DNA of 64,000 nucleotides, taken from a virus. Its lineage: Duplodnaviria > Heunggongvirae > Uroviricota > Caudoviricetes. Both the position numbers and the translations under genes were made by a program. Positions 3,449 to 56,506 of this stretch are shown piece by piece (the first letter of the stretch is position 1; every line of letters begins with the position of its first letter). Location: IMG/VR virus record IMGVR_UViG_3300028833_000099; one strand, written 5' to 3'. The notes under the pieces are model-generated. The model was not told where the DNA came from. It saw nothing but the letters and a program-made list of their open reading frames with translations, and did no database searches.

Positions 3449-4132
3449 TTAAGTCTCTAGATATAACGGTTTGTACGTCATTTTATAGTCCTCATCCAAC
3501 AAAGACACACAATAGACATCAGTTCCGTTGTGCTCTGTTTTTTCGTGCTGCGTAGAATGGAGGTGTCCATGAAGCATCACCTTTGGTTTCGCCTTGTCAA
3601 CAAATCTTCTTAATGATTCGTTTCCGATGTGTGTGCCATCAGCCCACCAGCAATCTTTCTGTAAAATAATATCACTAATGCCATAAGGAGCATCGTGAGA
3701 CATGATGATGTCAATTTTGCCAATTATATTAAGATGCCTTTCGTATTTCTCGTCTTGTTCTTCATATGATGGCATAAAAGCCCATCTACCAAATGGTTTA
3801 CACAATGGAGTGCCATAGATTATTTTCCCTTGATATTCAAATGTCTCACAATCCAAATAGGTAATTTTGTCACCATTGTTTTTGAGTAATAATCTAATTC
3901 TATCTGGATGTCTCTCTAACCAATGGTCATGATTACCAGCCACAAACAATACTTTTTCACATGGAAGATTATTGCACCAAGGTATAAAAACAGTCGCAAA
4001 CCATTTTTCGCTTTGGGTTGAGTATGACTGTATATTAAGCGGAACAATATCACCGCAAATTAATACTATATCGCATGGTTCAACCTTAAAATCTAGTTGC
4101 CCATGCATATCTGAGAATGCGCATATTTTCAT
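3449..4132 (-). CDS. calcineurin-like metallophosphoesterase
   Basis: Motifs DMHG, GDIV, GNHD and GHLH appear in the canonical order. The start was trimmed to MKICAF (ATG at 4130-4132) because the terminator-promoter module at 4150-4200 sits inside the longer ORF. Confidence 0.75.
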   Translation of the reverse strand: MKICAFSDMHGQLDFKVEPCDIVLICGDIVPLNIQSYSTQSEKWFATVFIPWCNNLPCEKVLFVAGNHDHWLERHPDRIRLLLKNNGDKITYLDCETFEYQGKIIYGTPLCKPFGRWAFMPSYEEQDEKYERHLNIIGKIDIIMSHDAPYGISDIILQKDCWWADGTHIGNESLRRFVDKAKPKVMLHGHLHSTQHEKTEHNGTDVYCVSLLDEDYKMTYKPLYLET

Positions 4133-4149
4133 ATCAATATTGTGTTTTT

Positions 4150-4200
4150 TGGCAAATATATAAAAAAAAATTGGAATAAACAAATAAGTCATTCCAATTT
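4150..4200 (-). promoter_or_regulatory. terminator hairpin + Bacteroidota sigma-A promoter module
   Basis: Minus strand: hairpin ATTGGAAT...ATTCCAAT, T-run, then TATATATTTGCC (TAnnTTTG -7 box). Confidence 0.6.
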
Positions 4201-4263
4201 TAATAAATAAGATGATAATATACAAGTTGACCCATTGATACATGTATACCGTCCCCAATTTAT

Positions 4264-4623
4264 TTACCAAATTTTTTTGTAATGGACACAAATATACTCT
4301 ATTCCAGCAATAGAGGCTTCTTCCCATGAATCATAAATATAGCCCCATCCACGTGTACCCTCTTCTTTGTCTATGTCATAAGTTGGTACATCACATGGAG
4401 TCCCACTTGAAGTCTCTACAAGTTTGTTTGCGATTAGATTAATCAAACACCAACGCCATTTTCTCTTCTTCGTTCCATACTTATGGGTATCACAAAGTAT
4501 GTAAAATCCCTTGTTATCTCTTAACCATTTTAAGACCTCTGAAATGGTACTGTCTGTACTAAACTGTTTAATTCCATGAGAATTAAAAAGATTCACTATT
4601 TTTGCTGTTAATTTATCTTCCAT
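4264..4623 (-). CDS. hypothetical protein
   Basis: 119-aa ORF. Confidence 0.4.
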   Translation of the reverse strand: MEDKLTAKIVNLFNSHGIKQFSTDSTISEVLKWLRDNKGFYILCDTHKYGTKKRKWRWCLINLIANKLVETSSGTPCDVPTYDIDKEEGTRGWGYIYDSWEEASIAGIEYICVHYKKIW

Positions 4624-6826: not shown

Positions 6827-7053
6827 AGTTATAAATATATTTGTTATTTTAAAATTTTTAAAATTATCATAGTTATCACAGCAAGAAATGATACTAATGA
6901 AATAATATCAAATGTTCTGTATAATAATTTTTTGAATTCTTTTTCACTTTCCATATGTGTTGCAAAGATATATGTATTTTTTTGAAAAAACAAGTAAAAA
7001 AACGTTTTTTAACATTTTATTCAAGTAATTTGCACTTTTCTTCACTGAAATTA

Positions 7054-7632
7054 TTATGCAATTCTGTGAACCGCCAAATGAATGGCTCCATTTAGTTTTC
7101 CGTTTTTCGCTAAAACTTTTCTTGCGTTTCTAAATGCAGTTAATAAACCAATTACTGGATTTGTTGAGAAATTACATCCAGAAGCAAAACACTTCCCATT
7201 TACAGAACGCAGTGTTACATTACATTCATATGTTATGCCAATTCCATCATTTACTGCCCAAGGTTTTACTGATGCACGACAGCCATAATGTTTGTTAATA
7301 CCACCAATTATTTTTTCGCATCCATGTAAATCAGTTTTCACTTCTTCAAATAAAAATCCATCAAGTTTACCGATATACACAAGTTGCCCTTTATCATCTT
7401 TCAAATAATTGTCTATCATACATTCGTATATGCCCCCAACATGGAATTCCATCATTGTTTGAGGCTCATAATTAAAATAGTTGCCATTACCACAACTATG
7501 AGAACGAAGGTATGTTCTATTTGTCGGAGATTTATAATTTGTATGGAAAACATTCATTATAAATGCATTTACTTCCTCCTCATCGATTTCTTTGCATTTT
7601 TCGCAAAGATAGTATTTTCCAAATTTAAACAT
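7054..7632 (-). CDS. cysteine-rich hypothetical protein
   Basis: 192 aa with CEKCKE...C...C clusters. Confidence 0.45.
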   Translation of the reverse strand: MFKFGKYYLCEKCKEIDEEEVNAFIMNVFHTNYKSPTNRTYLRSHSCGNGNYFNYEPQTMMEFHVGGIYECMIDNYLKDDKGQLVYIGKLDGFLFEEVKTDLHGCEKIIGGINKHYGCRASVKPWAVNDGIGITYECNVTLRSVNGKCFASGCNFSTNPVIGLLTAFRNARKVLAKNGKLNGAIHLAVHRIA

Positions 7633-10890: not shown

Positions 10891-11466
10891 CTCTTTACGA
10901 TGAATAATAATATATCTTTCAATTTTTTTATCAAAATCAAGCCCACAAAATATGGATTTTAAAACATCGGTTTTATTGTATGACCTTAACAAAAAATGTT
11001 TTGCGGTTTTGAGCGCATGTTTTAACGCAACTTCTTCAGAAGAAAAATATTTATTCTCATGGATGCCGTGTATTTCTGCTGTCAGTATAGTATATTTTTT
11101 ATTAGCCCAAGTTACCATATGTCTATCAAAACGGTCAAACAATCGATAATAGTATGCAAAGGAATCATCATCCTCAGAATAAGCAACATAGGTTTCTATT
11201 TTAATTCTAAAACGATAAAAAAGTAAATCCTTGAGTTTTAGAATTTTAAGTCTAACTGCCGATGGTAAATTAAAGAAATGTTGTACATATGTGCTAAATG
11301 GTAATGTTTTAGGCTTATAATGATTTCTTATTGGCTCGTATATTATTGCCCCACCACTACTCGGTAGAGGAATCATTGGATAGTAGCATCCGCTCTTAAA
11401 ATTATCAATATTGCATACGCACATACAAGGTCTTGTCCTTAATACTGTTTCTTTAACTTCTTTCAT
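10876..11466 (-). CDS. hypothetical protein
   Basis: 196-aa ORF. Confidence 0.45.
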   Translation of the reverse strand: MKEVKETVLRTRPCMCVCNIDNFKSGCYYPMIPLPSSGGAIIYEPIRNHYKPKTLPFSTYVQHFFNLPSAVRLKILKLKDLLFYRFRIKIETYVAYSEDDDSFAYYYRLFDRFDRHMVTWANKKYTILTAEIHGIHENKYFSSEEVALKHALKTAKHFLLRSYNKTDVLKSIFCGLDFDKKIERYIIIHRKELKFD

Positions 11467-11959
11467 TTTGTAAACGCTCCCTTACCTCATCTAATGCTTT
11501 TCCAAGAAGATTAGTACCTTTCCAGTTATTCTCGTCATCAATCATAGGGTTATTTTCCCCTAGACCAACGCCCCAAATTTTATCTATCGGACTAGCTTCA
11601 ACAAAGTGTTTTCCATTAAATTCGTCAGAAAGTATGTTACTTTTCAACTCTTCGTTTGATGAAAATTTAAGATAGCAAGCATCAACCATTACTTGATAAC
11701 GTTTTTCATTCCAAACATTATCATCATAATTTCTTACTTTGCGTCCAAGTGTTTTTGCAGTTTTGGGGTTTTTGCCCTCAAAGGCAATTTTCATGGCAAT
11801 TTCTTCATCACCAAACGTTTTAGCCTTTACAAACATAAAATACTGTTCTGAATTGTAGAAAGTATATTTTTTACCTTCATATTCAGCGTTAAAGGTACAA
11901 GGATACCAATTTGAAGGCCATTCGCCCCAGAAAAATATATGTTTATCAGTTATTCTCAT
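11453..11959 (-). CDS. NADAR-domain protein (YbiA-like, NAD/ADP-ribose metabolism)
   Basis: FFWGEW..SNW, YNSEQYFMFVKAK and KIWGVGL match conserved NADAR/DUF1768 blocks. Confidence 0.7.
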   Translation of the reverse strand: MRITDKHIFFWGEWPSNWYPCTFNAEYEGKKYTFYNSEQYFMFVKAKTFGDEEIAMKIAFEGKNPKTAKTLGRKVRNYDDNVWNEKRYQVMVDACYLKFSSNEELKSNILSDEFNGKHFVEASPIDKIWGVGLGENNPMIDDENNWKGTNLLGKALDEVRERLQNERS

Positions 11960-12552: not shown

Positions 12553-13776
12553 TTATCCTATCTGCTTTTGGATATAAACGCATTTCTCTGGATTTCCAAG
12601 CGTCTTACCCTTGTCGTTTGACAACTTGATGCAATCAAGCCATTTTCTGTTTTCGGTGATTCTCATTCCAACAAGTTTGATGACTATATTGGAATAAGGG
12701 AACTTTTCATTTGTTTCACGGTTGGTAACGTCAGCCATAAGATGCGTTCCTATACCATAAGAATCCTTCATGCGCCCATCAAGCCACTTATGCAAATCAA
12801 TAGCTTTATCTATTGTAAGGGCATTGGAATATACTATTGACTTGGTTCTAGGGTCAATACCAAGAGAGTTATATTTCTCAATCATCTTCTCAGTCTCTTC
12901 CCTTTCGTCACCGCTGTCAATTCGGATTCCGTCAAACATCTTAGCCATGTCTTTAGAGAAATTGGAAAGAAATATATTACTTCCAAAGCAATCTGGAAGG
13001 AAAATGCCAAGGTCTCCTGAATACACATCTGACCATTTTTTCATTAGCTGATGATTACACTCAAACACACCACTTACGCACTCTTCGAAAGAGCAAAGTT
13101 GATGACTCATAGTTCCAATAGGAGTGAGGTCAAACTCTTTTGCAAGCCATACATTAGATGTTCCAACGAATTTACCAGTGCATTTTTCGTTTAAAACGCA
13201 CAAAGACTCCGCATCTTTAAGTGCTTTAACCACATCATAGTGGTTCTGGAAATCAAAACGCCTTCTAGTTCCCATGTCACTCAATAGAAGTCCATTGCTA
13301 AATGCTTTAACACCTTTTTCAACAGCCTTTTCATATTCATATGTTCTATCTACTTTTTCAATGTCACTATTGATGATATGCATGAGTTCAGATATTGTTG
13401 AAAGAATAGGCATTTCCCACATAATTGTAGAATACCATTTGCCTTCAATCATGATGGACAGATACCCATCAAGGTCTTGGAAAATATGTACCTCTGAGGG
13501 ATTAAATCTAAAACCACGTAGAAAGTTGTAATACCATTCAGGGAGGAAGTAAATACGATTCTTCATAAATTCTATTTCATCCTCTGTAATCACAACATCT
13601 TTCATGCCATTTATCTGTTCTTGCAACAGTTCACTAAAACCTTTTGGATAACGTGTGTGATTGCGGTCAAAAAATGAATACCGCACCTCTGCACGAGGAT
13701 ATGTGTGAAGAATGTAATACTGGCAAGTAAAAGTATACATATCTTGGTCGGTGAATTTAGTTACGATTTGCTTCAT
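12553..13776 (-). CDS. pncB: nicotinate phosphoribosyltransferase (PncB-like)
   Basis: 407 aa. N-terminal FTDQDMYTF and FRFNPSEV...WEMPILSTISELMH blocks are collinear with the E. coli PncB N-terminal region (from memory). Confidence 0.8.
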   Translation of the reverse strand: MKQIVTKFTDQDMYTFTCQYYILHTYPRAEVRYSFFDRNHTRYPKGFSELLQEQINGMKDVVITEDEIEFMKNRIYFLPEWYYNFLRGFRFNPSEVHIFQDLDGYLSIMIEGKWYSTIMWEMPILSTISELMHIINSDIEKVDRTYEYEKAVEKGVKAFSNGLLLSDMGTRRRFDFQNHYDVVKALKDAESLCVLNEKCTGKFVGTSNVWLAKEFDLTPIGTMSHQLCSFEECVSGVFECNHQLMKKWSDVYSGDLGIFLPDCFGSNIFLSNFSKDMAKMFDGIRIDSGDEREETEKMIEKYNSLGIDPRTKSIVYSNALTIDKAIDLHKWLDGRMKDSYGIGTHLMADVTNRETNEKFPYSNIVIKLVGMRITENRKWLDCIKLSNDKGKTLGNPEKCVYIQKQIG

Positions 13777-13856: not shown

Positions 13857-14291
13857 TTATTTTATTTTTTTTAATATTATATTATTTGTTTCGTTTTTCC
13901 TAAGAGGAAATTGTTTTACTAGTTTCAACCCTTCTTGAGCTATGACCACACCATGTTTAAACCTATCTTGAATGTAGCAGAGTATAGATTTGTCTCGTTC
14001 ATGTTCAGCAATTTTTATTATCTTGAAAAGTTGTTTATCACCTTCTTGTCTTCTTTTTTCTGTTTTTTTGAAACTACCAGGAGAATAATATGGGAAATCG
14101 CTGCTATTCGTAAAATAACGGAATGCTTCAATATATCTAGGATAAACATCCCCCCAATCTCTAACACGAACAATATCACCAATCCTAAAAGGCAAACAAT
14201 CTCTACCCCCACTAGCTTTGTAGTAAATAAACACTTCTTTAGCTCTAGGGTTTGAACGTTTCACTGATTGTATCTGTGTTAATTGGCTCAT
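13857..14291 (-). CDS. hypothetical protein (tandem paralog A)
   Basis: Shares MSQLTQIQ, RIGDIVRVRDWG, EGDKQLFKIIKIAEHE and GVVIAQEGLKLVKQFPLRKNET with the neighbouring ORF. Confidence 0.5.
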   Translation of the reverse strand: MSQLTQIQSVKRSNPRAKEVFIYYKASGGRDCLPFRIGDIVRVRDWGDVYPRYIEAFRYFTNSSDFPYYSPGSFKKTEKRRQEGDKQLFKIIKIAEHERDKSILCYIQDRFKHGVVIAQEGLKLVKQFPLRKNETNNIILKKIK

Positions 14292-14821
14292 AGCCCTGTT
14301 TCATTTATTTTTTTTAATACTATGTTAATTGTTTCATTTTTCCTAAGAGGAAACTGCTTTACTAGTTTTAACCCTTCTGGAGCTATGACCACGCCACGTT
14401 TAAGCCTATCTTGAATATAGCAAACTATATCTCCACTCATAAGCTCATGCTCTGCAATATTTATTATCTTGAAAAGTTGTTTATCACCTTCTTGTTCTCT
14501 TTTATAAAAAGAATAATATGGGGTTTCCCTACTTCCTGTTAGAAAAACGAATGCTTTTGTGTAAGAAGAGTAACAGTAACCCCAATCTGTAACACGAACA
14601 ATATCGCCAACTCTAAATGGAAAATATTTTGTTCTTCCATAAGAGGTTTGATACATAAAAACTTGTTCAATATTCGAGTCTAGGTGACGTTGTTGCGCTT
14701 GTATCTGTGTTAATTGGCTCATAGTCTCTTTCCTCTGTTTCTTCAACGTTACCGTATGGGTAACTCCTAGAGTTATTATAATATGGGTTATACCTATCAG
14801 TTTGGTTTTTTGATAGTTCAC
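14288..14821 (-). CDS. hypothetical protein (tandem paralog B)
   Basis: Paralog of 13857..14291 with an N-terminal extension. Confidence 0.5.
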   Translation of the reverse strand: MNYQKTKLIGITHIIITLGVTHTVTLKKQRKETMSQLTQIQAQQRHLDSNIEQVFMYQTSYGRTKYFPFRVGDIVRVTDWGYCYSSYTKAFVFLTGSRETPYYSFYKREQEGDKQLFKIINIAEHELMSGDIVCYIQDRLKRGVVIAPEGLKLVKQFPLRKNETINIVLKKINETGL

Positions 14822-14908: not shown

Positions 14909-15820
14909 TCACTCTACCTTAATGTTTTCGATATTTTCGTGATACCATGTATTAAACTCTTCAAACTCTTCGTCTGAAAACTCCTTACGCACGGTATCGT
15001 ACTCAATATAATCGCAATATTTGACTTTTACGATGATTCTTTTACCGCTTCCATCGCAAAGTGGAATCACTGGACGAGCAACAATACCCTCCTCAATCAT
15101 AGTTGGGTCAGCAGCACCCTCAAACTGAGTTGTGAAACCACCCCTAACCTTATCTTCGATTTCCTTGAGTGTCATTATACCCAAGAAAGGAACAGTGCCT
15201 AGTCCAAGACCCTTACACAATGAGTCTCTTACATCCTTTGGTGTCCACCAACCTTGCTGTCTGATGTCAAACACACGGAATGCATTACCATTCTTAATGT
15301 AACGAGAACCGCACTTCTGAATACCAGTACCAAAATACTCTCCGTAGATATAAACTGGAACCTCTTCAAGTTCCACGCTGTAGAAACCTTTTGAGGGTGG
15401 CGTATCAATGATTGCATCTTTTCCAAGCTCTAGAGTATAGTACTGCACCTTGTTTGTCTCCTTATTTTTTACTGGAGTAAATCTAGCACTCTCTTTAGGG
15501 AACATTGCGCAAAGTTGTGGCTTGATACGCTCACCAATCTCTTGCAGCATTTCGAACTGCCCATGCTGAGAGCTTGATTTCTCGTTTTTACCTTCAATGC
15601 GAATCTCTTGGGTAGATGGGAAAAACGCAATTTTGCTACAAGTTCCATCAATCTTGCTATATGCCTCCCAAGTACAATTGAAAAGGTAACTAGCCTCAAT
15701 GTTTGAAAACTCGCCCAAGATTATTTTATTCTTGAACTTAAGCCACTTCTTATTTGGGCATTTAGACCCATCAAAAATATACCTTTTATACAAGGTGTTT
15801 ATTTTAGTGTATGCTTCCAT
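14909..15820 (-). CDS. Rnl2-family ATP-dependent RNA ligase
   Basis: Nucleotidyltransferase motif I SKIDGT, motif YGEYFGTGIQK...FRVFDI and EGIVARP are collinear with T4 Rnl2 (from memory). Confidence 0.7.
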   Translation of the reverse strand: MEAYTKINTLYKRYIFDGSKCPNKKWLKFKNKIILGEFSNIEASYLFNCTWEAYSKIDGTCSKIAFFPSTQEIRIEGKNEKSSSQHGQFEMLQEIGERIKPQLCAMFPKESARFTPVKNKETNKVQYYTLELGKDAIIDTPPSKGFYSVELEEVPVYIYGEYFGTGIQKCGSRYIKNGNAFRVFDIRQQGWWTPKDVRDSLCKGLGLGTVPFLGIMTLKEIEDKVRGGFTTQFEGAADPTMIEEGIVARPVIPLCDGSGKRIIVKVKYCDYIEYDTVRKEFSDEEFEEFNTWYHENIENIKVE

Positions 15821-15837
15821 GCTTTATTATTTTTTAA

Positions 15838-16092
15838 TTATTCTGTTTCTTCTCTCCACAAATTATTTTCCATTTTGTCAGAATTGGAAAATTCTATAAT
15901 TTCGTCAATGTTATCACATTTAATTTTTTTCAGCATATCCAATTCAATTTCTCCATTATTGATGCCTTCAACAAGAGCCAACAATGTTCTATATGGGGTT
16001 AATAAATTTCTAAGATGTGCCCCTAAAGTTTCTGTTGCCATTTTTTTATTAATTAGTAGGACAATGTGGACTCGAACCACAGACCTCCCCAT
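15838..16092 (-). CDS. hypothetical protein
   Basis: 84-aa ORF. Its 5' end overlaps the tRNA-like element at 16059-16140, so the start is uncertain. Confidence 0.3.
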   Translation of the reverse strand: MGRSVVRVHIVLLINKKMATETLGAHLRNLLTPYRTLLALVEGINNGEIELDMLKKIKCDNIDEIIEFSNSDKMENNLWREETE

Positions 16093-16140
16093 ACTAGTGT
16101 TTCCACGTTCTGGTGTACTCTACCAACTGAGCTATCGTCC
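16059..16140 (-). tRNA. tRNA-like gene (82 nt, anticodon arm not resolved by eye)
   Basis: Canonical D-arm (GCTCAGTTGGTAGAG), T-arm (GTGGTTCGAGTCCAC) and a complementary acceptor stem. The central ~33 nt is too long for a type I tRNA. Confidence 0.45.
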
Positions 16141-16401
16141 TTAATGCAATCTTCATGCGGCTAGCGTTTCCTTCTTCCGCACTCATCTAAGTAATTGCTT
16201 GATAACTGACTGTTTTACAATCTCGGTCAAACTAACTCCATTGCAAGCATCAATCTGTTCCGAAGTCGAGACTGTTATATCTTAGCAATGTCGTGTGGCA
16301 GGACTGCCCTCACCACGTCTTTCAGTTACCGTTTTGAAGCTTCATGGTGCAAATGTACGAAATTAAATTGATATATCCAAATTTTTTTATCTTAAAAAAC
16401 G

Positions 16402-17106
16402 TTAATTTTTATAGATTTTTATTGTTACTCCTGCACAATATACCAACAATAACCCTAACATTGTTATCAATACAGAACATCCCCACATATAGTATATAAG
16501 GCAGAACATTAAAACAAGCCCAACTACAGTAGAACCTATTCCGAATAGGAATTGATAATACAATAACGAGTGCTTTATTGGATAAGATTTCTTACTCAAG
16601 TAATCTTCAGCATAGAAGCTTAAAAAATTAGTTATACTACTTCTATAATTTAATTTTTCCCATTTTTTAACATCATAATTGTTTATATAAGTCATTCTGC
16701 AAAGTATTTTAAGCCTTTTTATCAAATCAGAATCATTTCTCATATTATACAATGTGATGCCTTTCAAATAAATAGGAGAGTTGCCTCTTAGCGCACTTCT
16801 TTTTTGTCCTGGAGGAACGTCTTTTATCGAATATCTCATGCGGAATAGACCAAAAACTTTTTTGTTTTTTAACGCCCTACAAAAATCTTGCACTAGTTGG
16901 TGATTTTTACTAATCCCACAGAATTCAGAATCAATATCAGCATATGGGTCTTTTTTTATTTGTTCTTCCACCTTTTTAGCTTTTTTTAGTTTTCTTTTTA
17001 TTCTAAGTTGTCTTAGTTTCTTGCTTTTTCTCATCCTTTTTGAAGACTTCTTTAAATGGACTAATAATGTTTTTCCAACTAAAGATTCTGTTAAGGATTC
17101 CTTCAT
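16402..17106 (-). CDS. membrane protein with lysine-rich N-terminus
   Basis: K/R-rich N-terminus and C-terminal transmembrane helices. Confidence 0.45.
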   Translation of the reverse strand: MKESLTESLVGKTLLVHLKKSSKRMRKSKKLRQLRIKRKLKKAKKVEEQIKKDPYADIDSEFCGISKNHQLVQDFCRALKNKKVFGLFRMRYSIKDVPPGQKRSALRGNSPIYLKGITLYNMRNDSDLIKRLKILCRMTYINNYDVKKWEKLNYRSSITNFLSFYAEDYLSKKSYPIKHSLLYYQFLFGIGSTVVGLVLMFCLIYYMWGCSVLITMLGLLLVYCAGVTIKIYKN

Positions 17107-17266
17107 CTTCTAAATCCATAACAAGACTTTCCAAAATGCCTAATTTCTCTTTATATATTGCTGTTTCCTTTGAAACATCAACTAGAGTTTGTTCCAATGA
17201 CTTAACTTTGCTTTTCAAGTCATTATACTCTTTCATTGGTATCTCTATCCTTGCCATATTACCCAA
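17003..17266 (-). CDS. small coiled-coil protein
   Basis: 87 aa with a heptad-like pattern. It overlaps the neighbouring ORF, so it is doubtful. Confidence 0.3.
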   Translation of the reverse strand: MGNMARIEIPMKEYNDLKSKVKSLEQTLVDVSKETAIYKEKLGILESLVMDLEDEGILNRIFSWKNIISPFKEVFKKDEKKQETKTT

Positions 17267-17834
17267 TATTGACTCTTTCTGAATTATTGATAAAGTTTAT
17301 AACTTTTTCCTCCCCATCTTTTGTTATTGCTGGGCAAAAATCAATAAGAACGTGGAAATTAACATTTGGAAATGCCCTTAAACCATCTTTCAATGAATCA
17401 AAAAGACACACGTCTAAAGCAATGCCAGCCAAATCAATATCAGTTACTTTCATCATTTCACAAATATTACTAAGTAATGCATTAGACTTTTCATTCTTAA
17501 ACACTGAATATTCCTCGTGGTCTTCATCGACCCCTTTAGTCAAGACAATATAGTCACTATTAATAGCGTTCAAAGCATCAATAATTGGCTGATAGATTGC
17601 TGCATCATGCGTATGTTGTACGCAATGTTCAGGCCATACCCCACCGTTTGCCTTGAATGAACAATGTGTATGCGGATGCCAATCTGCTGTTAGAAATATC
17701 TTATCATATGCTGGACCGTTTTCACGTATAAATTCAGCAAGACGATTCATTTTATGGGTTGCACCTTCCACTGGAAGATTACCGCCCTCTAGAAAACCAT
17801 ATTGACAATCTATTAAAATCAAAATTTTATTCAT
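17259..17834 (-). CDS. pncA: nicotinamidase/pyrazinamidase (PncA, isochorismatase family)
   Basis: ILIDCQYGF, TADWHPHTHCSF and GIALDVCL correspond to the catalytic Asp/Lys/Cys blocks of PncA. Confidence 0.8.
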   Translation of the reverse strand: MNKILILIDCQYGFLEGGNLPVEGATHKMNRLAEFIRENGPAYDKIFLTADWHPHTHCSFKANGGVWPEHCVQHTHDAAIYQPIIDALNAINSDYIVLTKGVDEDHEEYSVFKNEKSNALLSNICEMMKVTDIDLAGIALDVCLFDSLKDGLRAFPNVNFHVLIDFCPAITKDGEEKVINFINNSERVNIG

Positions 17835-17846
17835 AATTTATTCTGT

Positions 17847-18362
17847 TTAATTATTATTATTTTCACATGCGACAGCAGCAGTGGTAAGATTTCCAACAAT
17901 TTCTGCTATAGCATCATTTTTAATCTCTGCTTCTTTCTCAGCCTCTTTTGGTTTTTTGACCTCTCTTGACTTTGATGTTTTTTTGGTCTCTTTTGGTTTT
18001 TTGACCTCTCTTGACTTTGGTGCTTTTTTAACTTTAATTGTTTTTGATGTAGTCTTTTTTTGCGTTTCTTGAGTGTTTACAACATCATCAGTAGGCATTT
18101 CCACTGTTTCATTTAATGCCTCTGTATCAATAGTTTTTTCTTCATTATTGATGGTTGTTTTCTTTTCATTTGCTAACTCCTCAAGTTCTTTCATGAATTT
18201 CTCTTTTTCTTGTTTCACCTTATACTCGGTAATATCATATGTAACACAAGAATTATGATATTTTTTTGCAAATAGGGTCATACAAGAATCAGTTTCTGTC
18301 TTAAGACCCTTGCAAGGACAGTTTTTACATAGTGTACCCATAGTTTTTCTTTTTTTATGCAA
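17847..18362 (-). CDS. Cys4 zinc-finger and lysine-rich repeat protein
   Basis: N-terminal CKNCPCK...C, then tandem KKPKE(T/A)KKTSKSREV repeats encoded by DNA direct repeats at ~17930-18060. Confidence 0.5.
   Translation of the reverse strand: MHKKRKTMGTLCKNCPCKGLKTETDSCMTLFAKKYHNSCVTYDITEYKVKQEKEKFMKELEELANEKKTTINNEEKTIDTEALNETVEMPTDDVVNTQETQKKTTSKTIKVKKAPKSREVKKPKETKKTSKSREVKKPKEAEKEAEIKNDAIAEIVGNLTTAAVACENNNN
17930..18060. repeat. tandem direct DNA repeats inside ORF 17847..18362
   Basis: GACCTCTCTTGACTTTG(A/G)TG(T/C)TTTTTT(GG/AA) repeated. They encode the KKPKE.KKTSKSREV repeats. Confidence 0.5.
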
Positions 18363-18464
18363 ATATACTAAAAATAATTTAAATATAAAAATATTATATT
18401 ATATATTATATTTTATTAATATTATTTAATATATTATATTATTATAATTAAAGAACCTAATGGG

Positions 18465-19871
18465 TCATACCGTTAGGCTCTTTAATTTATTTTCAACAAT
18501 CTCAAATGCTTCATCTTTAGTCATATTAGGATTTTCAAAATATGCTTCTTTAACAGCCTCTAAAAGTATTCCAATATTTGGTCCACTTTTTAAATGAAAT
18601 TCCTTCAAAATATCGTCTCCAGAGATAGGAAGTTTAACATTTGCTGCTTTTTCAGCATCTTCCATTTCCTCTATTCTATTGAGAATATCAAGAACTTGCC
18701 GTTTTTTCTTACCAAAGGTGCAATAAAGATTATTGGCGTTCATTAGGTCAGCAGTTGCCCCCAAATCATCACCAGTTAAGTTGATAAATTTTCTAATCTT
18801 CTTATCTGGCGGTAATACGCCATCGGCATAACTTGCAAAACCTCTATGATGCTTAATGGCGGTTTCAACAGATTTGATGATATAATTAGGGTATTTCATG
18901 TCCTTCAAGTCGCTTGCAGCAATTTCTGCACTAAACTTATCTGGCATCACATCCCTACGTTTCTCTGTTATAATTCTACCAACATCATGGAACAAAGCAG
19001 CCAATCTGTTTTCTAAATAAGGCTGAACAGTATCTAGCACGTTCATCGTATGGTCAAATGTGCTAACCATAGGATTCCTTGACTCATAGGCGTAGGTTGT
19101 ATCATAAATATCGGGCATTACTCTATGCAAAATGCCACAGAAATACATTTTCCGAATACCGATGCTTGGTTTTTCACAAAGTAGAATCTTGGATATTTCG
19201 TCACTAATTCTTTCTTGCGATATAATTTTAATGCGGTGTGCATTTTTAATCATCCCTAACCAAGTGTTTTTTTCAATATCCCAACCGAATCTAGTTGAAA
19301 AACGAATTACACGTAAGATTCTCAATGGGTCATCATTGAACGTAACATCTGGGTCAGTTGGAGTCTTTATTACTTGATTTACCAAGTCATCTATAGAGCC
19401 GTTAAAATCATGTATTTTCTCTGTGCTGATGTTATAATACAGAGAATTGATAGTAAGGTCACGCCTTTTTGCATCCTCTTCAAGGCTTCCGAATACAGTT
19501 TCTGGGTTTCTGCTTTCCTTGTGGTACTGTTCCTTTCTAGTTTGGACGCATTCAATCTCTATATCTTTAAATTCATCGTTCTTGAACAATTGGAACTTCG
19601 CAGTTCCATAGTTTTCAAACACTACTGGATTAGTATTATGAATAAAACATTGGTGTTTTATTGCCATATATACAGCAAACAGCATTCCACCGTTTTTCAT
19701 TTCAACAACGATGTCAATGTCTTTAATGGGTAATCCTAACAATGCATCACGCACACAGCCACCAACCAAATATACTTTTCCTTCAAAATGAGTGTTTTTG
19801 ATTGACGCTTGTATGAGGTCAATTAGGTGTTTGATTCTATCATCAACTTTTTTAAATAATAGTTCGTTCAT
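18465..19871 (-). CDS. cca: tRNA nucleotidyltransferase (CCA-adding enzyme) with HD domain
   Basis: Pol-beta nucleotidyltransferase signature GGCVRDALLG...DIDIV plus an HD motif LFHDVGR. Confidence 0.85.
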   Translation of the reverse strand: MNELLFKKVDDRIKHLIDLIQASIKNTHFEGKVYLVGGCVRDALLGLPIKDIDIVVEMKNGGMLFAVYMAIKHQCFIHNTNPVVFENYGTAKFQLFKNDEFKDIEIECVQTRKEQYHKESRNPETVFGSLEEDAKRRDLTINSLYYNISTEKIHDFNGSIDDLVNQVIKTPTDPDVTFNDDPLRILRVIRFSTRFGWDIEKNTWLGMIKNAHRIKIISQERISDEISKILLCEKPSIGIRKMYFCGILHRVMPDIYDTTYAYESRNPMVSTFDHTMNVLDTVQPYLENRLAALFHDVGRIITEKRRDVMPDKFSAEIAASDLKDMKYPNYIIKSVETAIKHHRGFASYADGVLPPDKKIRKFINLTGDDLGATADLMNANNLYCTFGKKKRQVLDILNRIEEMEDAEKAANVKLPISGDDILKEFHLKSGPNIGILLEAVKEAYFENPNMTKDEAFEIVENKLKSLTV

Positions 19872-33964: not shown

Positions 33965-34549
33965 TTATTTTATTACTTGATTGAAAATTTCTACTATACG
34001 ATTCTTATGATTAAAAGCCCATTCATAATTATCAATGTCCTTGACCTTAACCCAAGTAATCTTGCCCACCTCTTTACCTTCATTATGTTCTTTAGAGAAT
34101 TCAAAATCAGATGTAATGCGGTCTTCTATTTTGGCAGCAAAACGGAAAGTAACGTTCTGCCTATTTGCTTTAACTGGGTCATCCTCATAACCAATGAATA
34201 TCAAACTTTCAATAGGAAGTTTAACACCTGTTTCCTCAAAGCACTCACGCACAGCACATTCTTTGGTGGTTTCATCATAATCAAGATAGCCACAAGTGCA
34301 ATTCCACATGCCTCTGAAATCTGCCGCCTCTTCTCCACGCTCTGATGCTAGGACGCACCAATCGCCTTCTTCATCCTTACAGAATGCAAATAGGGCTGTT
34401 GCCATTGAACGGCTAAACCAACCAATAAAACATTTATTGATAAGTTCCAAGAATACTTCTTCATTAATACCGTTTTTTTTGCAAATTTCTCTTATGCCTT
34501 CGATAAGTTTATTCATGTCCAGACAAGGACGATTTGTCATTTTCTCCAT
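33965..34549 (-). CDS. Nudix hydrolase
   Basis: Nudix box GYLDYDETTKECAVRECFEETGV (G-x5-E-x7-REUxEExGU). Confidence 0.8.
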   Translation of the reverse strand: MEKMTNRPCLDMNKLIEGIREICKKNGINEEVFLELINKCFIGWFSRSMATALFAFCKDEEGDWCVLASERGEEAADFRGMWNCTCGYLDYDETTKECAVRECFEETGVKLPIESLIFIGYEDDPVKANRQNVTFRFAAKIEDRITSDFEFSKEHNEGKEVGKITWVKVKDIDNYEWAFNHKNRIVEIFNQVIK

Positions 34550-36976: not shown

Positions 36977-37061
36977 GTAGCGAGGGTTGGTTTCGAACCA
37001 ACGATGAGCCGAAGCTCCCTTCCTTATGAGAGAAGTGCGATAGACCACTCTGCCACCTCGC
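36977..37061 (-). tRNA. type II tRNA with anticodon loop CTCATAA (CAU)
   Basis: Acceptor GGCGAGG/CCTCGCT, Leu/Ser-like D-arm TGGCAGAGTGGTCTA, anticodon stem CTTCT/GGAAG and a long variable hairpin GAGCTTCGGCTC. Confidence 0.5.
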
Positions 37062-37134
37062 CATTAAGTAGCTGCGTCACTAGAATAAATCCGTTCACTA
37101 TGTTTAAGGTTGTGTACACATACCTACAGCTACT

Positions 37135-40117: not shown

Positions 40118-40166
40118 AATTATAAATATTCGAATACGTACAAAAATAATTAGTATCTGAAATTAG

Positions 40167-40250
40167 AACACCACATGGGATTCGAACCCATAAGACCTTT
40201 CGATACCTCTTTAGGAGAGAGGGACGCTTCCAATTACGTGCTAGTGGTGC
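40167..40250 (-). tRNA. tRNA-like gene (anticodon loop CTCCTAA, CCU; extended variable region)
   Basis: Acceptor GCACCAC/GTGGTGT, anticodon stem CCTCT/AGAGG, T-arm ATGGGTTCGAATCCCAT. At 84 nt it is atypical. Confidence 0.4.
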
Positions 40251-42241: not shown

Positions 42242-43225
42242 TTATTTAGCAAAAGTTTCAAATGCATCATCAACCAATTGCGAAACCATATCTATCTGGT
42301 ATGTCGCTAATTCGCTCCTAAACATTCTTCCACTCATTGTTCTTCTACCTTTCTTTTTCTTAGACACGAAAACTGTTTTACCACCTTTATTATCTTTCGA
42401 TGGTTTAAGCTGCTCGTCTTCAGTAGAATACCCAATATGGGTGAAACCTAAAAATGAACCGTTTTTCTCAATTTTGCAGAGTTCAACATGATTTGCACCA
42501 TATTTAAACTCTCCAGTACGAACCTTAATTTGTTTAATGTACCTTGTTGAGGGGTCTTTAAGACTCATACCAACTGCAAACATTGCATCAAAGAAATTAG
42601 TTAGTTTTTTACTACCACTTAGGCTGTTCTGCGTAAGTGGAGAACCCAAATTCCTTTTTGGCGTGTGCGAGAGAACTAGAATACTCATTCCGTATTTTTT
42701 CTTTAACGTACAGAGATTTTTCATAAGTTTTCCAGCAGTAGTTGCAGTATCTTTCATATTGACAAGCCAACTAAGGTTATCAACAATTATAATTTTTGAA
42801 TTGTATTTGTTAATGTTAGCCTCAATTCCACCAATAAGAACATCATCGAAACTTTCTTTTGTCGCATCACAATAATCTTTGACTGCATCTGAATCAAGTT
42901 CCACTCTAATGAACTTATCACTGAAATTAAAGGTATCCTTTGTTTTCTCGTCAGTATATCTAAGCTCAAACTGTTTTTTACTCAACTCAAAATCGTAGTA
43001 TAAAACAGTCTCACCGTTTTTCACTTTTTCAGCAATGGCATTACCAATCTGAACGGCAAGAATACTCTTACCTACATTTGCGTCAGCAAAAAGGCAACAG
43101 ACCTCATTTTCAAACCAAAACTCTTTCCAAAGTTTCTTGGGGTCTTTCTGCTCTTTCGCTTTAACAATTGTCTCATTGGCACTCATGCCACTGAATATGT
43201 CTGCTAAAGATGGTTTATTTGCCAT
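42242..43225 (-). CDS. RecA-superfamily P-loop ATPase (AAA_25/DnaB-like)
   Basis: Walker A ADANVGKS and Walker B-like IIVDNLSW. Confidence 0.6.
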   Translation of the reverse strand: MANKPSLADIFSGMSANETIVKAKEQKDPKKLWKEFWFENEVCCLFADANVGKSILAVQIGNAIAEKVKNGETVLYYDFELSKKQFELRYTDEKTKDTFNFSDKFIRVELDSDAVKDYCDATKESFDDVLIGGIEANINKYNSKIIIVDNLSWLVNMKDTATTAGKLMKNLCTLKKKYGMSILVLSHTPKRNLGSPLTQNSLSGSKKLTNFFDAMFAVGMSLKDPSTRYIKQIKVRTGEFKYGANHVELCKIEKNGSFLGFTHIGYSTEDEQLKPSKDNKGGKTVFVSKKKKGRRTMSGRMFRSELATYQIDMVSQLVDDAFETFAK

Positions 43226-43518: not shown

Positions 43519-43534
43519 AACGTTTTCTTTTAGA

Positions 43535-43645
43535 GTGCGGTAGAGGAATCGAACCTCTGTATTTGTCCTACCCATAGACGAATCACAATGTGATGGTGGG
43601 CTCGAACCACCTTTCATGAATCCTAACCACTAGATGAACCGCACA
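43535..43645 (-). tRNA. composite tRNA-like element with two T-arms
   Basis: 5' acceptor GTGCGGT plus D-arm, then an internal T-arm-like hairpin GGTGGTTCGAGCCCACC, then a second T-arm AGAGGTTCGATTCCTCT and the matching 3' acceptor ACCGCAC. At ~110 nt this is an interrupted tRNA or fused fragments. Confidence 0.35.
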
Positions 43646-46948: not shown

Positions 46949-47317
46949 TCAGTATTTTTGTTTAGATTGAATTACACCTCTCACACCCCCTCTTGGGTCT
47001 TCGCAATCACCATTATATCTAGGTATAATGTGTATATGGCAATGCATAACGGTTTGTCCAGCAGCCTCGCCACAATTCACCCCTATGTTATAGCCATTTG
47101 GCTGGTATTTAGAATCAAGTATTTCTTTAACGTGGTCAACTGCACCAACTAGAGCACCCAATTCCACTTGGTTTAAATCAAAATATGTTTCACAATGCCT
47201 TTTGGGAATTAATAGGGTATGTCCTTTCGAAACTGGATAACCATCTGAAATAGCCACCCATAAAGAATCTTGATAGATTATTCTATCTTCTTTGATACCA
47301 CAAAATACACAGCCCAT
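46949..47317 (-). CDS. HIT-family hydrolase
   Basis: Histidine triad HCHIHIIPR and upstream HTLLIPKRH. Confidence 0.8.
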   Translation of the reverse strand: MGCVFCGIKEDRIIYQDSLWVAISDGYPVSKGHTLLIPKRHCETYFDLNQVELGALVGAVDHVKEILDSKYQPNGYNIGVNCGEAAGQTVMHCHIHIIPRYNGDCEDPRGGVRGVIQSKQKY

Positions 47318-47817
47318 TATTCTTCAGCAGTAATGCGTTTAACTTCAACTATAAGAGCGTCTAAAGCAGATTCAATTACAGTTTCAATATTTTGACCTCG
47401 CAGACCATCTACTTGTATTTTGCTATATTTAAAATCTACTTTCTTATCTGTCATTGTTGCAATACAAATCCAAACGACATTATGAGTCTCCTCATTAAAG
47501 TCTTCCGTAGGTGATACATTACCAACCACCGCAACACAAATATCTGTATCTAACTTATAAAGACCATTTAAAGCCATTTGGCAAGCCACTTGGGAACTTA
47601 CAAGCCCATTGTTTTTTATTGCGTTAGATGACACATCTAACAGTTTTTCCATGTGAGGCTGGTCAACAACAACTATTGTTCCGCAATAAACTGTATCTAG
47701 TCCACACATACTTGATATGGATGCGCCAAGTAAACCACTAGTACAATGTTCTACTGTGCCAATCGTTAAGTTTGAATTAAGTAACTCTACGCCCAATACC
47801 CTTAATTTATCCTTCAT
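47317..47817 (-). CDS. CinA C-terminal-domain protein (PncC-like NMN deamidase)
   Basis: TVEHCTSGLLGASIS resembles the ESCTGG active-site block of CinA/PncC. Confidence 0.65.
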   Translation of the reverse strand: MKDKLRVLGVELLNSNLTIGTVEHCTSGLLGASISSMCGLDTVYCGTIVVVDQPHMEKLLDVSSNAIKNNGLVSSQVACQMALNGLYKLDTDICVAVVGNVSPTEDFNEETHNVVWICIATMTDKKVDFKYSKIQVDGLRGQNIETVIESALDALIVEVKRITAEE

Positions 47818-49385: not shown

Positions 49386-49689
49386 AAAAAAATATTTTTA
49401 TTACTATTTTAATTTATAGTGCAAAGGTACGAAAAAAAGTCGAACTAACCAAATAATTAGTCCAACTTTAACAATCTTTAACTTTACACTTGTTTTGCGC
49501 CTTGTTTATCTTAGGTCAATAATATAGAATAGGTTTACCTATACCAACCATAAAGGTATCCTCTTATCCATCAAGGAACTAGGGTAAGGGGCTAATCCTC
49601 GCACCGCATTACTGCTTCACCTACCATTTCTTACGTGGTTTGTGCTGTCTTACCTATTTCAGTACTTCACTTGAGTACACCAGCCGTAG

Positions 49690-49780
49690 TGAGCATAGTA
49701 GGATTCGAACCCACGATGAACTTTCTCAAGCCCATAACGGTTTTAGGGACCGCCACAATCGACCACTCTGCCATATGCCC
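49690..49780 (-). tRNA. type II tRNA with anticodon loop CCCTAAA (CUA), a candidate amber suppressor
   Basis: Acceptor GGGCATA/TATGCTC, Leu/Ser-like D-arm TGGCAGAGTGGTCGA, anticodon stem GCGGT/ACCGT, ~20-nt variable arm and T-arm GTGGGTTCGAATCCTAC. Confidence 0.5.
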
Positions 49781-49789
49781 AGTTAAATA

Positions 49790-50110
49790 TTAAGATTCAG
49801 ATAATCTTTTTAATTTATTATTAAGAACAAGAATCATACCTTCAGCGATTAGTTTCTCATTCTCATAGTGTTTTATTCTTTTTTTCAAAGTTTCAACTAG
49901 TACTTTATTTGCTTCTTCTGTGGTGTCATATACTACACTGCCGTTAATTAGATAATCACCATTTGCTAGGTCTTTCCGTCCAATTTTGAAAATAGGGCGT
50001 TCCCTACCATCATCAATTGGTTTACTAACTACGACACTAGTAGTTATTTCATCATCACCACTTATATATATGGCAGTATCGCCAACATTTAAATCTGCTG
50101 CTTTTTTCAT
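49790..50110 (-). CDS. hypothetical protein
   Basis: 106-aa ORF. Confidence 0.4.
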   Translation of the reverse strand: MKKAADLNVGDTAIYISGDDEITTSVVVSKPIDDGRERPIFKIGRKDLANGDYLINGSVVYDTTEEANKVLVETLKKRIKHYENEKLIAEGMILVLNNKLKRLSES

Positions 50111-50211
50111 AATGCAAATATATGAAAATTATTTTAAATAACAAAATATTTTCAATAGTTTTAACAAAAAAAAGCACTATAAGCTAAAGCCTATAGTACT
50201 TTTATATCGCA

Positions 50212-50511
50212 TCAGTCTTCGGTTACTGTTTTCAAATTTTTAAATAGCTCTTCGTGTCCGAAAACCGCCAAGGCTGTTGTTTTATAGTTTAAATCTGGTT
50301 CTTTAAACTCGGTATAGTCAATGCCATACCCTTCAAGCCTTCTTTTCCACTTATCTACGTCAGCATATAGATAAATCAAATAATCGTTACTCCATTCAAG
50401 GCTATTGGGATGCTCAATCATCCATTGAGCCACTGCATGACCTCCTTGAACACAACCATATACTGGTTTTAACGCTCTATCTACGAGTATGTATAACTTC
50501 TTTTTAATCAT
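50212..50511 (-). CDS. possible PTH2-like peptidyl-tRNA hydrolase (tentative)
   Basis: YILVDRALKPVYGCVQGGHA and TALAVFG resemble PTH2 blocks (V..DL.MGKGK.AAQ..HA, TVLAIGP). This is a weak call. Confidence 0.3.
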   Translation of the reverse strand: MIKKKLYILVDRALKPVYGCVQGGHAVAQWMIEHPNSLEWSNDYLIYLYADVDKWKRRLEGYGIDYTEFKEPDLNYKTTALAVFGHEELFKNLKTVTED

Positions 50512-50815
50512 TGTCTTCTACGGATGCAAATTTGTTATACTCCTCGATAACGTAATTTTTAAAAAGTGGAATTGCATAATTCTCAGTCATATCACCACCA
50601 CTACCAACTATTCTACCATTGTAGAGACCTTTATGGCAACGAGTCTTAACCTCTTCATCAAGGTACTTATCACGTTCCTCACCTTCAATACGATGCTTAA
50701 AAATGTAATATGCTACGTAAGTCCAATGAGAATGCTCTCTACTTTTGATATACTCCTTAAATTTAAGATACTGTTCTTTAGTGGTTGTGTTGTTTGTAAA
50801 AATTTTTGTATTCAT
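50504..50815 (-). CDS. hypothetical protein
   Basis: 103-aa ORF. Confidence 0.4.
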   Translation of the reverse strand: MNTKIFTNNTTTKEQYLKFKEYIKSREHSHWTYVAYYIFKHRIEGEERDKYLDEEVKTRCHKGLYNGRIVGSGGDMTENYAIPLFKNYVIEEYNKFASVEDND

Positions 50816-51024
50816 ATTTTTTCCTTTTATTAATTCGTTATATTCTTTAAATGTTAAAAACTTTACTTCACTTTTTTTCCCTAACGAATTAATTTTAGGA
50901 GTACCACGAACACGATTCAGCTACCAAAATTGGCTGAAAACCTACCAAAAACTGTTTTTCTTCATAATAATAATTTTTATTTTAATTAGTTAATAAAAAC
51001 GGAAGCATTTTCCTATGTCAAGGT

Positions 51025-51100
51025 GGTTGGATTCGAGCCAACGCAAGCGTTTCAAGCGTATACGGCTTATGAGACCGTCATGTTACCACTACATCACCCC
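51025..51100 (-). tRNA. tRNA-like element with anticodon-like hairpin ACGGT-CTCATAA-GCCGT
   Basis: T-arm GTTGGCTCGAATCCAAC with a CAU-type loop. The variable region is unusual. Confidence 0.3.
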
Positions 51101-51511
51101 ATGATTAATAAAACTTACGGATATACTTTATCAGGAATCTTGCTTTCTCTGCTGAAGACTTATTTTTACCTATCCACTCATAGGAACTTCACAGAGTGCT
51201 TCGCACACCATTAGGTAGCATCGAATGAGATAGTATTCCATACGCTAGTGGAACTATATAGACATTGTTACATACCTCAATCTACATTCTTCTTAGTGTG
51301 TACCCTTGCGACAAATGTACCCACGCTTGTATATCTACGCCTCTATCGTAAGTTTTATATTGAAGGGAACTTTTTTTCGGTTTTATTCGTTTCAAGCAAA
51401 TTCCATATAGTCATTGCTGTAAGTTCCCACTATTGGTTAAGGAATTGGAAACGGTAGAGCCACACTACGAAACTCTCTACCTACTCATCGTAGCATTATC
51501 CAAAACCTTAG

Positions 51512-51585
51512 TGGACAAGATGGGACTCGAACCCACGACCCTCTGAATGCAAATCAGATGCTCTAGCCAACTGAGCTACAAGCCC
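51512..51585 (-). tRNA. tRNA-Ala (UGC)
   Basis: D-arm GCTCAGTTGGCTAGAGC, anticodon stem TCTGA/TCAGA with loop TTTGCAT, T-arm GTGGGTTCGAGTCCCAT, G3-U70 wobble. Confidence 0.6.
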
Positions 51586-51719
51586 TAGAAAAATTGTTAG
51601 TTTTTTATACAGAACTAACAAACTGCATAGAGTTCTCAGCTTATTCGTCTTTAGTTTGCTCACTTTGAACCTCTTTTGTTAGTCAGAAGGAATCGAACCT
51701 TCATTACAACCATTTGACC

Positions 51720-52046
51720 TTAAAGAATTTCTACTACTTTTCCGTAGATTTGGTTTCTACCTACCCATCCGTTCATATGTCCGTGATTGTTACCAATAAG
51801 ATATTCACTATCATTTTTAATTGCATGGATTAGGTGCAGATAATGATGACCTCTAACTTTGCAAAGAACAATATTTTTCTTTTCTAGTTTTGTGTCATCT
51901 TTTACTGGTTCACATATAACCGCTTGTCTTGATTTAAGAATAGGGGCCATAGAGTTACCAATACCAGTTACTTTACACGTCTCACCTCCTCTGAGGTGAT
52001 TGCAAGTTTCTTGATTTTCGAAACCGCTATAAGTAAATTCTCTCAT
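51720..52046 (-). CDS. S24/S26-like serine peptidase domain protein
   Basis: GNSMAPIL resembles the GDSMxP catalytic-serine motif of LexA/UmuD/signal peptidase folds, with a downstream conserved Lys. Confidence 0.5.
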   Translation of the reverse strand: MREFTYSGFENQETCNHLRGGETCKVTGIGNSMAPILKSRQAVICEPVKDDTKLEKKNIVLCKVRGHHYLHLIHAIKNDSEYLIGNNHGHMNGWVGRNQIYGKVVEIL

Positions 52047-52192
52047 ATGTTAATTGTTTAAGTGGAGTATTGGAGATTCGAACTCCAAGAGGTCTTATGT
52101 TTCCCGCCTCTCGTATGGTCTTCTTATGCATGAAACCGACCAGCAGGTCACCACCCAACGTGTTTATACCCCATGAGAATTACTTATTGCAG

Positions 52193-56495: not shown

Positions 56496-56506
56496 GTAGG
56501 GTATGA

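Follow-up and report, generated by a model that had tools for sequence, protein, structure and literature searches.

Why a phage that carries a large array of tRNA genes should also encode an RNA ligase and a CCA-adding enzyme is the question raised by a 64,000 nt stretch of viral DNA (IMG/VR record IMGVR_UViG_3300028833_000099), the whole of which is referred to here as the window. The ligase gene (14909–15820) and the CCA gene (18465–19871) are 2.6 kb apart, and a sequence-only reading of the window had assigned them to a toolkit that repairs tRNAs cut by host nucleases. The window is AT-rich (~33% GC), and nearly all of its genes, including every feature of it given with coordinates below (leaving aside the RecA/AAA_25-like ORF), lie on the minus strand. 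The explanation that we favour, and to which as a whole we give slightly better than even credence, is that the sequence represents a co-directional accessory block that would make the phage partly self-sufficient in translation and NAD+ metabolism, with the CCA-adding enzyme serving the maturation of phage tRNAs and with a ligase of a minimal, Rnl2-type form.

The CCA gene encodes a 468 aa class II tRNA nucleotidyltransferase of the CCA-adding type that carries an HD domain at its C-terminus, in agreement with the sequence-only reading. Pfam detected PolyA_pol (PF01743, 89.6 bits), PolyA_pol_RNAbd (PF12627, 57.3 bits) and HD (PF01966, 25 bits; cutoff 22), and the closest PDB matches were CCA-adding enzymes (cca1, E = 5e-32), with poly(A) polymerases behind at ~2e-20. 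Among the NCBIfam models, the actinobacterial CCA model TIGR02692 aligned end to end (216.8 bits, cutoff 438.8), while the PcnB poly(A) polymerase model scored 133.5. The GGxVRD, DxD, RRD and DDPLR motifs are readable in the sequence, and the protein shares the head, neck and HD architecture of bacterial CCA enzymes (E. coli Cca; TIGR02692 type) with its HD residues intact. These residues (H..HD..HH..D, in the DH, HDVGR and HH segments) are kept by members of the clade and by phage LR756501 (735 kb); in the ortholog of the Lak megaphage Lak-A1 (396811–398664 of that genome) the segment carrying the HD motif is deleted. Homologs of the CCA-adding enzyme occur in 479 deposited phage genomes.

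Evidence on the role of this enzyme comes from the 3′ ends of the tRNA genes. ARAGORN and Rfam place 17–18 tRNA genes, interleaved with small open reading frames (ORFs), in an array at 49689–63646, and ~26 tRNA or tRNA-like genes in the entire window. The large array described by the sequence-only reading is therefore present, although its count of at least 20 tRNA genes at 49.4–64.0 kb becomes 17, plus one doubtful tRNA and one transfer-messenger RNA (tmRNA). In a close relative the array runs past the end of the window with Arg, Thr and Asp genes. None of the tRNA genes in the window encodes CCA, and position 74 is C in each of the 24 well-defined ones. A scripted register gave C74 in 23 of the 24 (binomial P ~7e-19); the apparent exception, at 53826–53896, is an initiator-like tRNA-Met with a C1:A72 mismatch atop the acceptor stem, and its proper register (A73-CUA) brings the count to 24/24. 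This gene is one of five in the window with a CAU anticodon. Position 75 is U, A or G, and position 76 is A in about three-quarters of the 24 genes, which gives tails such as CUA or CAA. The tmRNA gene (54823–55151; ARAGORN; Rfam RF00023, 78.9 bits; tag GENVDSPAYEYAIAA) ends likewise, in ...GUCCA|CUA.

The same tails were found in related phages. Across seven IMG/VR relatives, C74 is present in 120 of 128 tRNA genes and C75 in only 11, and the few true CCA tails are confined to more distant relatives of 40% GC. In Lak-A1, 147 kb of which was scanned for tRNAs, the two usable genes both end in N73-CAA. A C74-(not C)-A tail might be taken for a phage-specific oddity, an idea rejected once Bacteroidota chromosomal loci were examined: in a sample of 80 rRNA operon ends, whose tRNAs are mostly spacer Ile and Ala, C74 was found in 121/121 tRNA genes and CCA in just 5, the commonest tails being CUA, CAA and CGA. 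The tails are the norm of the host phylum, and their adherence to the Bacteroidota rule strengthens the assignment of the phage to a Bacteroidota host.

Since no phage tRNA gene encodes CCA, completion of this end would be obligatory for tRNA maturation, and an enzyme with such a role needs no defence story. The CCA-adding enzyme is, judging by the gene sequences, most simply explained by the CCA-less tRNA genes of the phage. After 3′ trimming, each phage tRNA, like each tRNA of such a host, would have to gain at least C75-A76 from a CCA-adding enzyme, and the phage's own class II enzyme may supply this capacity when more than 26 extra tRNA species flood the cell, a direct reason of maturation for carrying it. 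CCA ends nibbled by nucleases would be restored by this chemistry as well, and the intact HD domain could, by analogy with E. coli Cca, clear 2′,3′-cyclic or 3′-phosphates; repair is a possible second use of the enzyme.

The RNA ligase (303 aa) matches Pfam RNA_ligase (PF09414, 51.5 bits; cutoff 27) and the RNA ligase families of PHROG. Its motif I reads S-K56-I-D-G-T, and the segments YGEYFGTGIQK, FRVFD, EEGIVARP and IVKVK follow. The nucleotidyltransferase motifs I, III, IIIa, IV and V are all present (K56-I-D-G, G160-E161-Y, F181..F184-D185, E244-G245 and K265-x-K267) and are invariant or nearly so; in an alignment of 38 homologs reaching down to 27% identity, K56, G59, E161, D185, E244, G245, K265 and K267 do not vary. 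The adenylation lysine of a KxDG motif, on which the sequence-only reading had made the identification of an Rnl2-family ligase depend, is thus in place. A phmmer search of the single sequence against PDB sequences returned nothing useful. A profile built from the 38 homologs matched the T4 Rnl2 adenylyltransferase domain over the entire domain length (E = 1.6e-20), with Rnl3 and Rnl5 next at 1e-6 to 1e-5. In tblastn searches, the C-terminal half of the ligase domain matched genes named 'RNA ligase 2' in T4-like phages of Klebsiella, Enterobacter and Cronobacter.

An AlphaFold model computed from the diverse 38-homolog alignment reached a pLDDT of 95 (an earlier model, from 21 close homologs only, had a pLDDT of 45 and was discarded). 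In fold comparisons this model scored highest against the N-domain of T4 Rnl2 (20.3, over 192 residues at 22% identity), followed by the Naegleria RNA ligase and the trypanosome editing ligase (16.5 each), archaeal Rnl3 (14.3), DNA ligases (12.5 or less) and T4 Rnl1 (11.6), and Foldseek gave the same ranking of families. The possibility that the enzyme is an ATP-dependent DNA ligase was rejected: DNA ligases score lower than Rnl2, and no OB-fold domain follows the nucleotidyltransferase domain in the model. Full-length Rnl2 (2hvq) aligned over 191 residues, no more than the isolated N-domain. Only 36 residues, forming two helices, follow motif V, and a clade-specific insert (~aa 78–150) lies between motifs I and III, where the ligase has ~50–70 residues more than T4 Rnl2. 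Most distant homologs are stand-alone domains of 205–245 aa that end directly after motif V. The name 'Rnl2-family' fits the catalytic domain, and the protein as modelled appears to be a minimal Rnl2-like domain rather than a canonical Rnl2.

Several points weigh against the favoured explanation. T4 Rnl2 (PDB 1s68, 2hvq) has a C-terminal domain, whereas the ligase of the window has ~36 residues after motif V, and the Rnl2-specific alpha-helical domain (T4 residues ~244–329) was found neither in its sequence nor in its model. Truncated T4 Rnl2(1–249) self-adenylylates and seals pre-adenylated nicks, and cannot adenylylate 5′-phosphate RNA. By analogy, the insert and tail of the ligase, or a partner, would have to replace the missing RNA-adenylylation module. 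(Truncated Rnl2 is paired with pre-adenylated adapters in the methods of PMC12409363.) The ligase family is not tied to tRNA arrays, as the context of a crAss-like phage homolog indicates: it lies in a replication module with DNA polymerase, dUTPase and ribonucleotide reductase genes, adjoined by a HicA-like mRNase. Unlike the bacterial CCA enzymes, the phage-encoded one falls under all NCBIfam equivalog cutoffs, and its sequence does not disclose whether it adds the full CCA, CC, a single A or poly(A). The make-up of the Bacteroidota sample described above, dominated by two spacer tRNAs, counts on the same side. Finally, the host must already own a CCA-adding enzyme, and the benefit of a phage copy is something that we infer.

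If the ligase and the CCA-adding enzyme belonged to a system of the T4 type, then healing enzymes might be expected near them. Like T4, in which Pnkp and Rnl1 act against PrrC, this phage combines an ATP-dependent RNA ligase with a heavy investment in tRNAs, and a logic of mending broken tRNAs would match the T4 Pnkp and Rnl1 pathway. The polynucleotide 5′-kinase of that pathway was, however, not found in a Walker A scan of 81 ORFs in the 64 kb; the lone Walker A motif belongs to a RecA/AAA_25-like ORF (42242–43225). When PHROG and Pfam scans were extended to ~50 more ORFs, every neighbour of the ligase among them, no match to a kinase, 2H phosphoesterase, RlaP, RtcB, Tpt1 or splicing endonuclease came up, and none of those neighbours matched a phosphoesterase of any kind. 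A crude scan for two HxT/S motifs flagged just two small ORFs, neither beside the ligase, which were treated as chance. The candidate phosphatases for healing are the HD domain of the CCA-adding enzyme, 2.6 kb from the ligase, and a calcineurin-like metallophosphoesterase (Pfam Metallophos 49.2 bits; PHROG 1649) in an unrelated neighbourhood 10.6 kb from it, whose best PDB relative is MPPED2 (5.6e-7). The phosphoesterase had been recognised by the sequence-only reading, with a start (4132) that is an internal codon, Met66, of the full ORF at 3449–4327.

The chemistry expected of the ligase narrows the breaks that it might mend. Lys56 would be adenylylated by ATP, the AMP passed to a 5′-phosphate, and the break sealed by attack of the 3′-OH; without a kinase nearby, the enzyme could directly seal just 3′-OH/5′-phosphate breaks. 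If it repairs tRNA, the lack of a detected kinase therefore points to breaks of this kind, such as metal-dependent tRNases make. One of these, the Toprim tRNase AriB of PARIS, leaves 3′-OH and 5′-phosphate ends (PMC12409363), and its targets in E. coli are tRNA-Lys(UUU), Thr(UGU) and Asn(GUU). Among the tRNAs that the window encodes more than once are Lys (UUU twice, plus CUU), Asn (GUU three times) and Thr (three times). The match of Lys, Asn and Thr to the AriB targets is suggestive, a parallel and no more.

The genes that keep company with the ligase are of another kind. The interval between it and the CCA gene is occupied by a tRNA-like gene, an ORF resembling a membrane protein, a small ORF known from the gene calls of the contig, a nicotinamidase and an ORF of low complexity. 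The nicotinamidase (a PncA-like isochorismatase, 17259–17834) matches Pfam Isochorismatase and the NCBIfam nicotinamidase/pyrazinamidase model (8e-17). On the other side of the ligase are a nicotinate phosphoribosyltransferase (PncB, 12553–13776; Pfam NAPRTase; TIGR01514, 333.7 bits, cutoff 269.6) and a NADAR-domain protein (11453–11959; Pfam PF08719, from the annotation of an identical contig). The order CCA enzyme, PncA, ligase, NAPRTase, NADAR is kept in relatives with as little as 74% ligase identity, while the surrounding small ORFs vary. Further genes of this theme are a nicotinamide/nicotinate mononucleotide (NMN) adenylyltransferase (55380–55940; Pfam CTP_transf_like; NCBIfam NMN adenylyltransferase, 2e-15), a CinA/PncC-type NMN deamidase domain (47317–47817; Pfam CinA; TIGR00199, 8.5e-17), a Nudix protein (33965–34549) and a HIT protein (46949–47317). 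By these domain assignments the window holds a near-complete predicted set for NAD+ salvage and ADP-ribose metabolism, in which no NAD synthetase was seen, and the salvage genes probably counter NAD+-depleting defences.

Just downstream of the ligase lie two tandem paralogous ORFs (13857–14291 and 14288–14821), ~144 aa each, that share the segments MSQLTQIQ..., GDIVRV.DWG and GDKQLFKII.IAEHE; they have no Pfam or PHROG match and vary among relatives. Another RNA ligase, distantly related to the first, has left a mere trace in the window, namely its last 19 codons (7020–7076), which were recovered by tblastn with the 228 aa ligase of a relative (L008). This second ligase is intact in relatives (19836–20522 in L008, with motif I KLDGQN), where it lies ~9 kb downstream of the first. 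A scan of 13.5–21 kb for promoters and terminators was uninformative in this AT-rich DNA.

The affiliation of the phage emerged from protein comparisons. The 14–21 kb region had no megablast match among 50,697 deposited phage records. The identical ligase protein is present on metagenome contigs of 87–97 kb, and relatives with 74–88% ligase identity are on contigs of 385–415 kb. For the ligase, the CCA-adding enzyme, a conserved 99 aa ORF and an endonuclease V-like ORF (the last two described below), the best matches in annotated phages are to the 540-kb Prevotella Lak megaphages (30–54% identity), and the non-phage homologs of the endonuclease V ORF come from Bacteroidota. On this sequence evidence, together with the tRNA tails, we take the window to be part of a ~400-kb gut or rumen megaphage that is a distant relative of Lak and has a Bacteroidota host. 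Homologs of these four genes and a suppressor tRNA(CUA) are shared with the Lak phages (Devoto et al. 2019, PMC6784885), which differ from the phage of the window in size (540 kb versus ~400 kb) and base composition (26% versus ~33% GC). The genes are clustered in the window and dispersed in Lak: in Lak-A1 the four homologs lie at ~246, 289, 336 and 397 kb (the CCA-adding enzyme at the last of these), a spread of more than 150 kb. The suppressor tRNA gene of the window (49689–49780; ARAGORN) raised the idea that TAG is recoded; this was rejected, as the ORF map is dense under the standard genetic code and 14 ORFs stop at TAG.

In three tRNA genes the anticodon loop is interrupted on its 5′ side by an insertion, of 12–14, 23 and 53 nt respectively, in each case too short for a group I intron. 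One is the tRNA-like gene beside the ligase (16056–16141; Thr AGU by ARAGORN -i; Rfam tRNA 42.9 bits), which has the 12–14 nt insertion and sits 236 bp upstream of the ligase, before the next ORF. It is 100% identical, insertion and flanks included, in relatives with an 88%-identical ligase and is absent from more distant ones. The others are a tRNA-Thr(UGU)-like gene (43533–43644; ARAGORN -i; intergenic in the JGI gene calls), with a 23 nt T-arm-like insertion, and a tRNA-Asn(GUU) gene (52189–52312; Rfam tRNA 42.1 bits; ARAGORN -i), whose 53 nt insertion folds into a structure. Directly 5′ of the latter, in an ORF-free gap, is a GOLLD-like large structured RNA (52326–52747), which aligned to the full-length model Rfam RF02032 with its conserved motifs (E = 8.8e-21) at 85.7 bits against a cutoff of 150. 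GOLLD RNAs, for which we know of no function, are known to associate with phage tRNA islands. Highly conserved 'enigmatic' introns have been described for the tRNAs of Lak phages, one of them a partly tRNA-like insert in a Thr(UGU) gene (PMC6784885); that paper makes no mention of an RNA ligase.

A different peculiarity is seen in the Trp(CCA), Met(CAU), Arg(CCU) and amber(CUA) tRNA genes at 58338–58427, 36977–37062, 40166–40250, 51018–51103 and 49689–49780, whose bodies are class II-like, with a long variable arm. In the Trp gene, the stem of this arm shows compensatory changes among relatives, which also carry a normal tRNA-Trp of 73–76 nt.

Within the tRNA array lies an endonuclease V homolog (58995–59669), as the sequence-only reading had proposed. 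Its Pfam Endonuclease_5 match falls just under the cutoff (22 bits, cutoff 23.4; E = 1.4e-4), and the ORF is 42–46% identical (E ~1e-30) to Chryseobacterium proteins annotated as endonuclease V with PF04493. The AFD, PG..RE and VDG motifs are readable, and a comparison with PDB 3ga2 (E = 0.28) aligned the PG..RE and DG motifs. Endonuclease V cuts beside inosine in DNA and RNA, leaving 3′-OH/5′-phosphate ends. Relatives of the phage carry tRNA-Arg(ACG). The conserved 99 aa ORF (50212–50511), with Lak homologs of 47–54% identity, had been suggested to be a PTH2-like hydrolase. Its sole match is PHROG 3668 ('hydrolase', 1e-7): neither it nor any of 16 homologs gave a Pfam hit, neither the sequence nor the profile found a PDB entry, and hhalign against human PTRH2 (in an approximate sequence) returned a probability of 0.3%. 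The PTH2 identity, without support in five tests, was not confirmed.

How far, then, do these genes amount to counter-defence? In that explanation the ligase, the HD domain of the CCA-adding enzyme and the metallophosphoesterase would heal and seal anticodon-nuclease cuts, the CCA-adding enzyme would rebuild tails lost to tRNases that attack the 3′ end, and extra tRNAs would replace those beyond repair. The idea is already published for jumbo phages, and the sequence-only reading restates it for a new lineage. Iyer et al. (2021, PMC7824862), in a survey that covered 224 jumbo phages, reported the provision of tRNAs, ligases of the Rnl1, Rnl2 and RtcB types, kinases and phosphatases (the latter in occasional cases calcineurin-like or HD), together with CCA-adding enzymes, PTH2 and NAD+ synthesis, and presented all of these as means to counter attacks by the host on translation and NAD+. 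With such sets the window has in common its wealth of tRNAs, a ligase of the Rnl2 family, a CCA-adding enzyme, phosphoesterases of the calcineurin-like and HD types, and genes of NAD+ synthesis. The action of T4 Pnkp and Rnl1 against PrrC is a precedent (cited in PMC12409363), a CRISPR effector that cuts tRNA tails has been described (PMC12851939), the multi-copy tRNAs include three known AriB targets, and the neighbouring NAD+ salvage genes would fit an anti-defence island. Against these stand several differences. The kinases and phosphatases of PMC7824862 are generally congruent with ligases, whereas no kinase was found within the 64 kb, and 2′,3′-cyclic phosphate/5′-OH breaks could not be completed with the genes seen; PTH2 was not confirmed; and the NAD+ route is the deamidated one (PncA, PncB and PncC with an NMN adenylyltransferase) instead of the nicotinamide phosphoribosyltransferase route of that survey. 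The phosphoesterase is far from the ligase and resembles the MPPED2 type, and the CCA-less tRNA genes fully account for the CCA-adding enzyme. The missing kinase, the distant phosphoesterase, the NAD+ salvage neighbours and the dispersal in Lak together argue that this is not a T4-style heal-and-seal operon, and the set appears from its gene content to be a loose accessory collection sharing a conserved block with NAD+ salvage genes. The repair toolkit is plausible in part and was overstated, and a dedicated counter-defence role seems to us rather improbable.

The ligase itself might act elsewhere. One proposal is a substrate other than tRNA, such as RNA:DNA hybrid or primer nicks in replication, broken mRNA, rRNA or GOLLD-like RNA, or a role linked to the NAD+ genes. 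The replication-module setting of the crAss-like homolog would suit it, as would the nearest structural relatives after Rnl2, NgrRnl and REL1, which seal nicks in duplexes, and the conserved neighbours of the ligase, which are NAD+ salvage and not tRNA genes; nor, to our knowledge, has a natural substrate been established for T4 Rnl2. Yet the ligase has no DNA-binding OB domain, one tRNA gene adjoins it, and its full-length homologs are in Lak phages and ~130-kb Streptomyces phages, a group that is tRNA-rich. We regard a non-tRNA substrate as unlikely. In the other proposal, a phage endonuclease excises the short tRNA insertions and the Rnl2-like ligase rejoins the halves, as might be suspected from the three insertion-bearing genes, from the position of one of them immediately upstream of the ligase, and from the presence in Lak phages of both tRNA introns (PMC6784885) and a ligase homolog. 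The window scans detected no splicing endonuclease, however, in agreement with the contig annotations. Moreover, the insertions are on the 5′ side of the loop and not at the canonical 37/38 site, the complete identity of the ligase-adjacent insertion in the relatives that have it leaves no covariation, other relatives retain the ligase with no insertion-bearing tRNA beside it, and in the Streptomyces and crAss-like phages the ligase is found in different surroundings. Splicing is accordingly the most doubtful of these proposals. The accessory translation and NAD+ block, with CCA completion as the routine task of its nucleotidyltransferase, remains the explanation that we prefer.

Huge phages that combine tRNAs with a CCA-adding enzyme, an RNA ligase and genes for NAD+ synthesis have already been catalogued, and to that catalogue the window mainly adds a lineage. 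What is new is that the CCA-adding enzyme would be obligatory given the tails of the tRNA genes, that the ligase appears to be a minimal one, and that the window yielded no kinase. The tails offer a simple, testable reason for the presence of a CCA-adding enzyme in Bacteroidota phages, namely that their tRNA genes, like those of the host, stop at C74. The insertion-bearing tRNAs, the ligase and the GOLLD-like RNA together provide a concrete place to test the 'enigmatic' introns of megaphage tRNAs. Splicing, if true, would represent protein-dependent tRNA splicing in a bacterial cell, and the stand-alone Rnl2-like ligases of phages, at present orphans, would gain a defined substrate.

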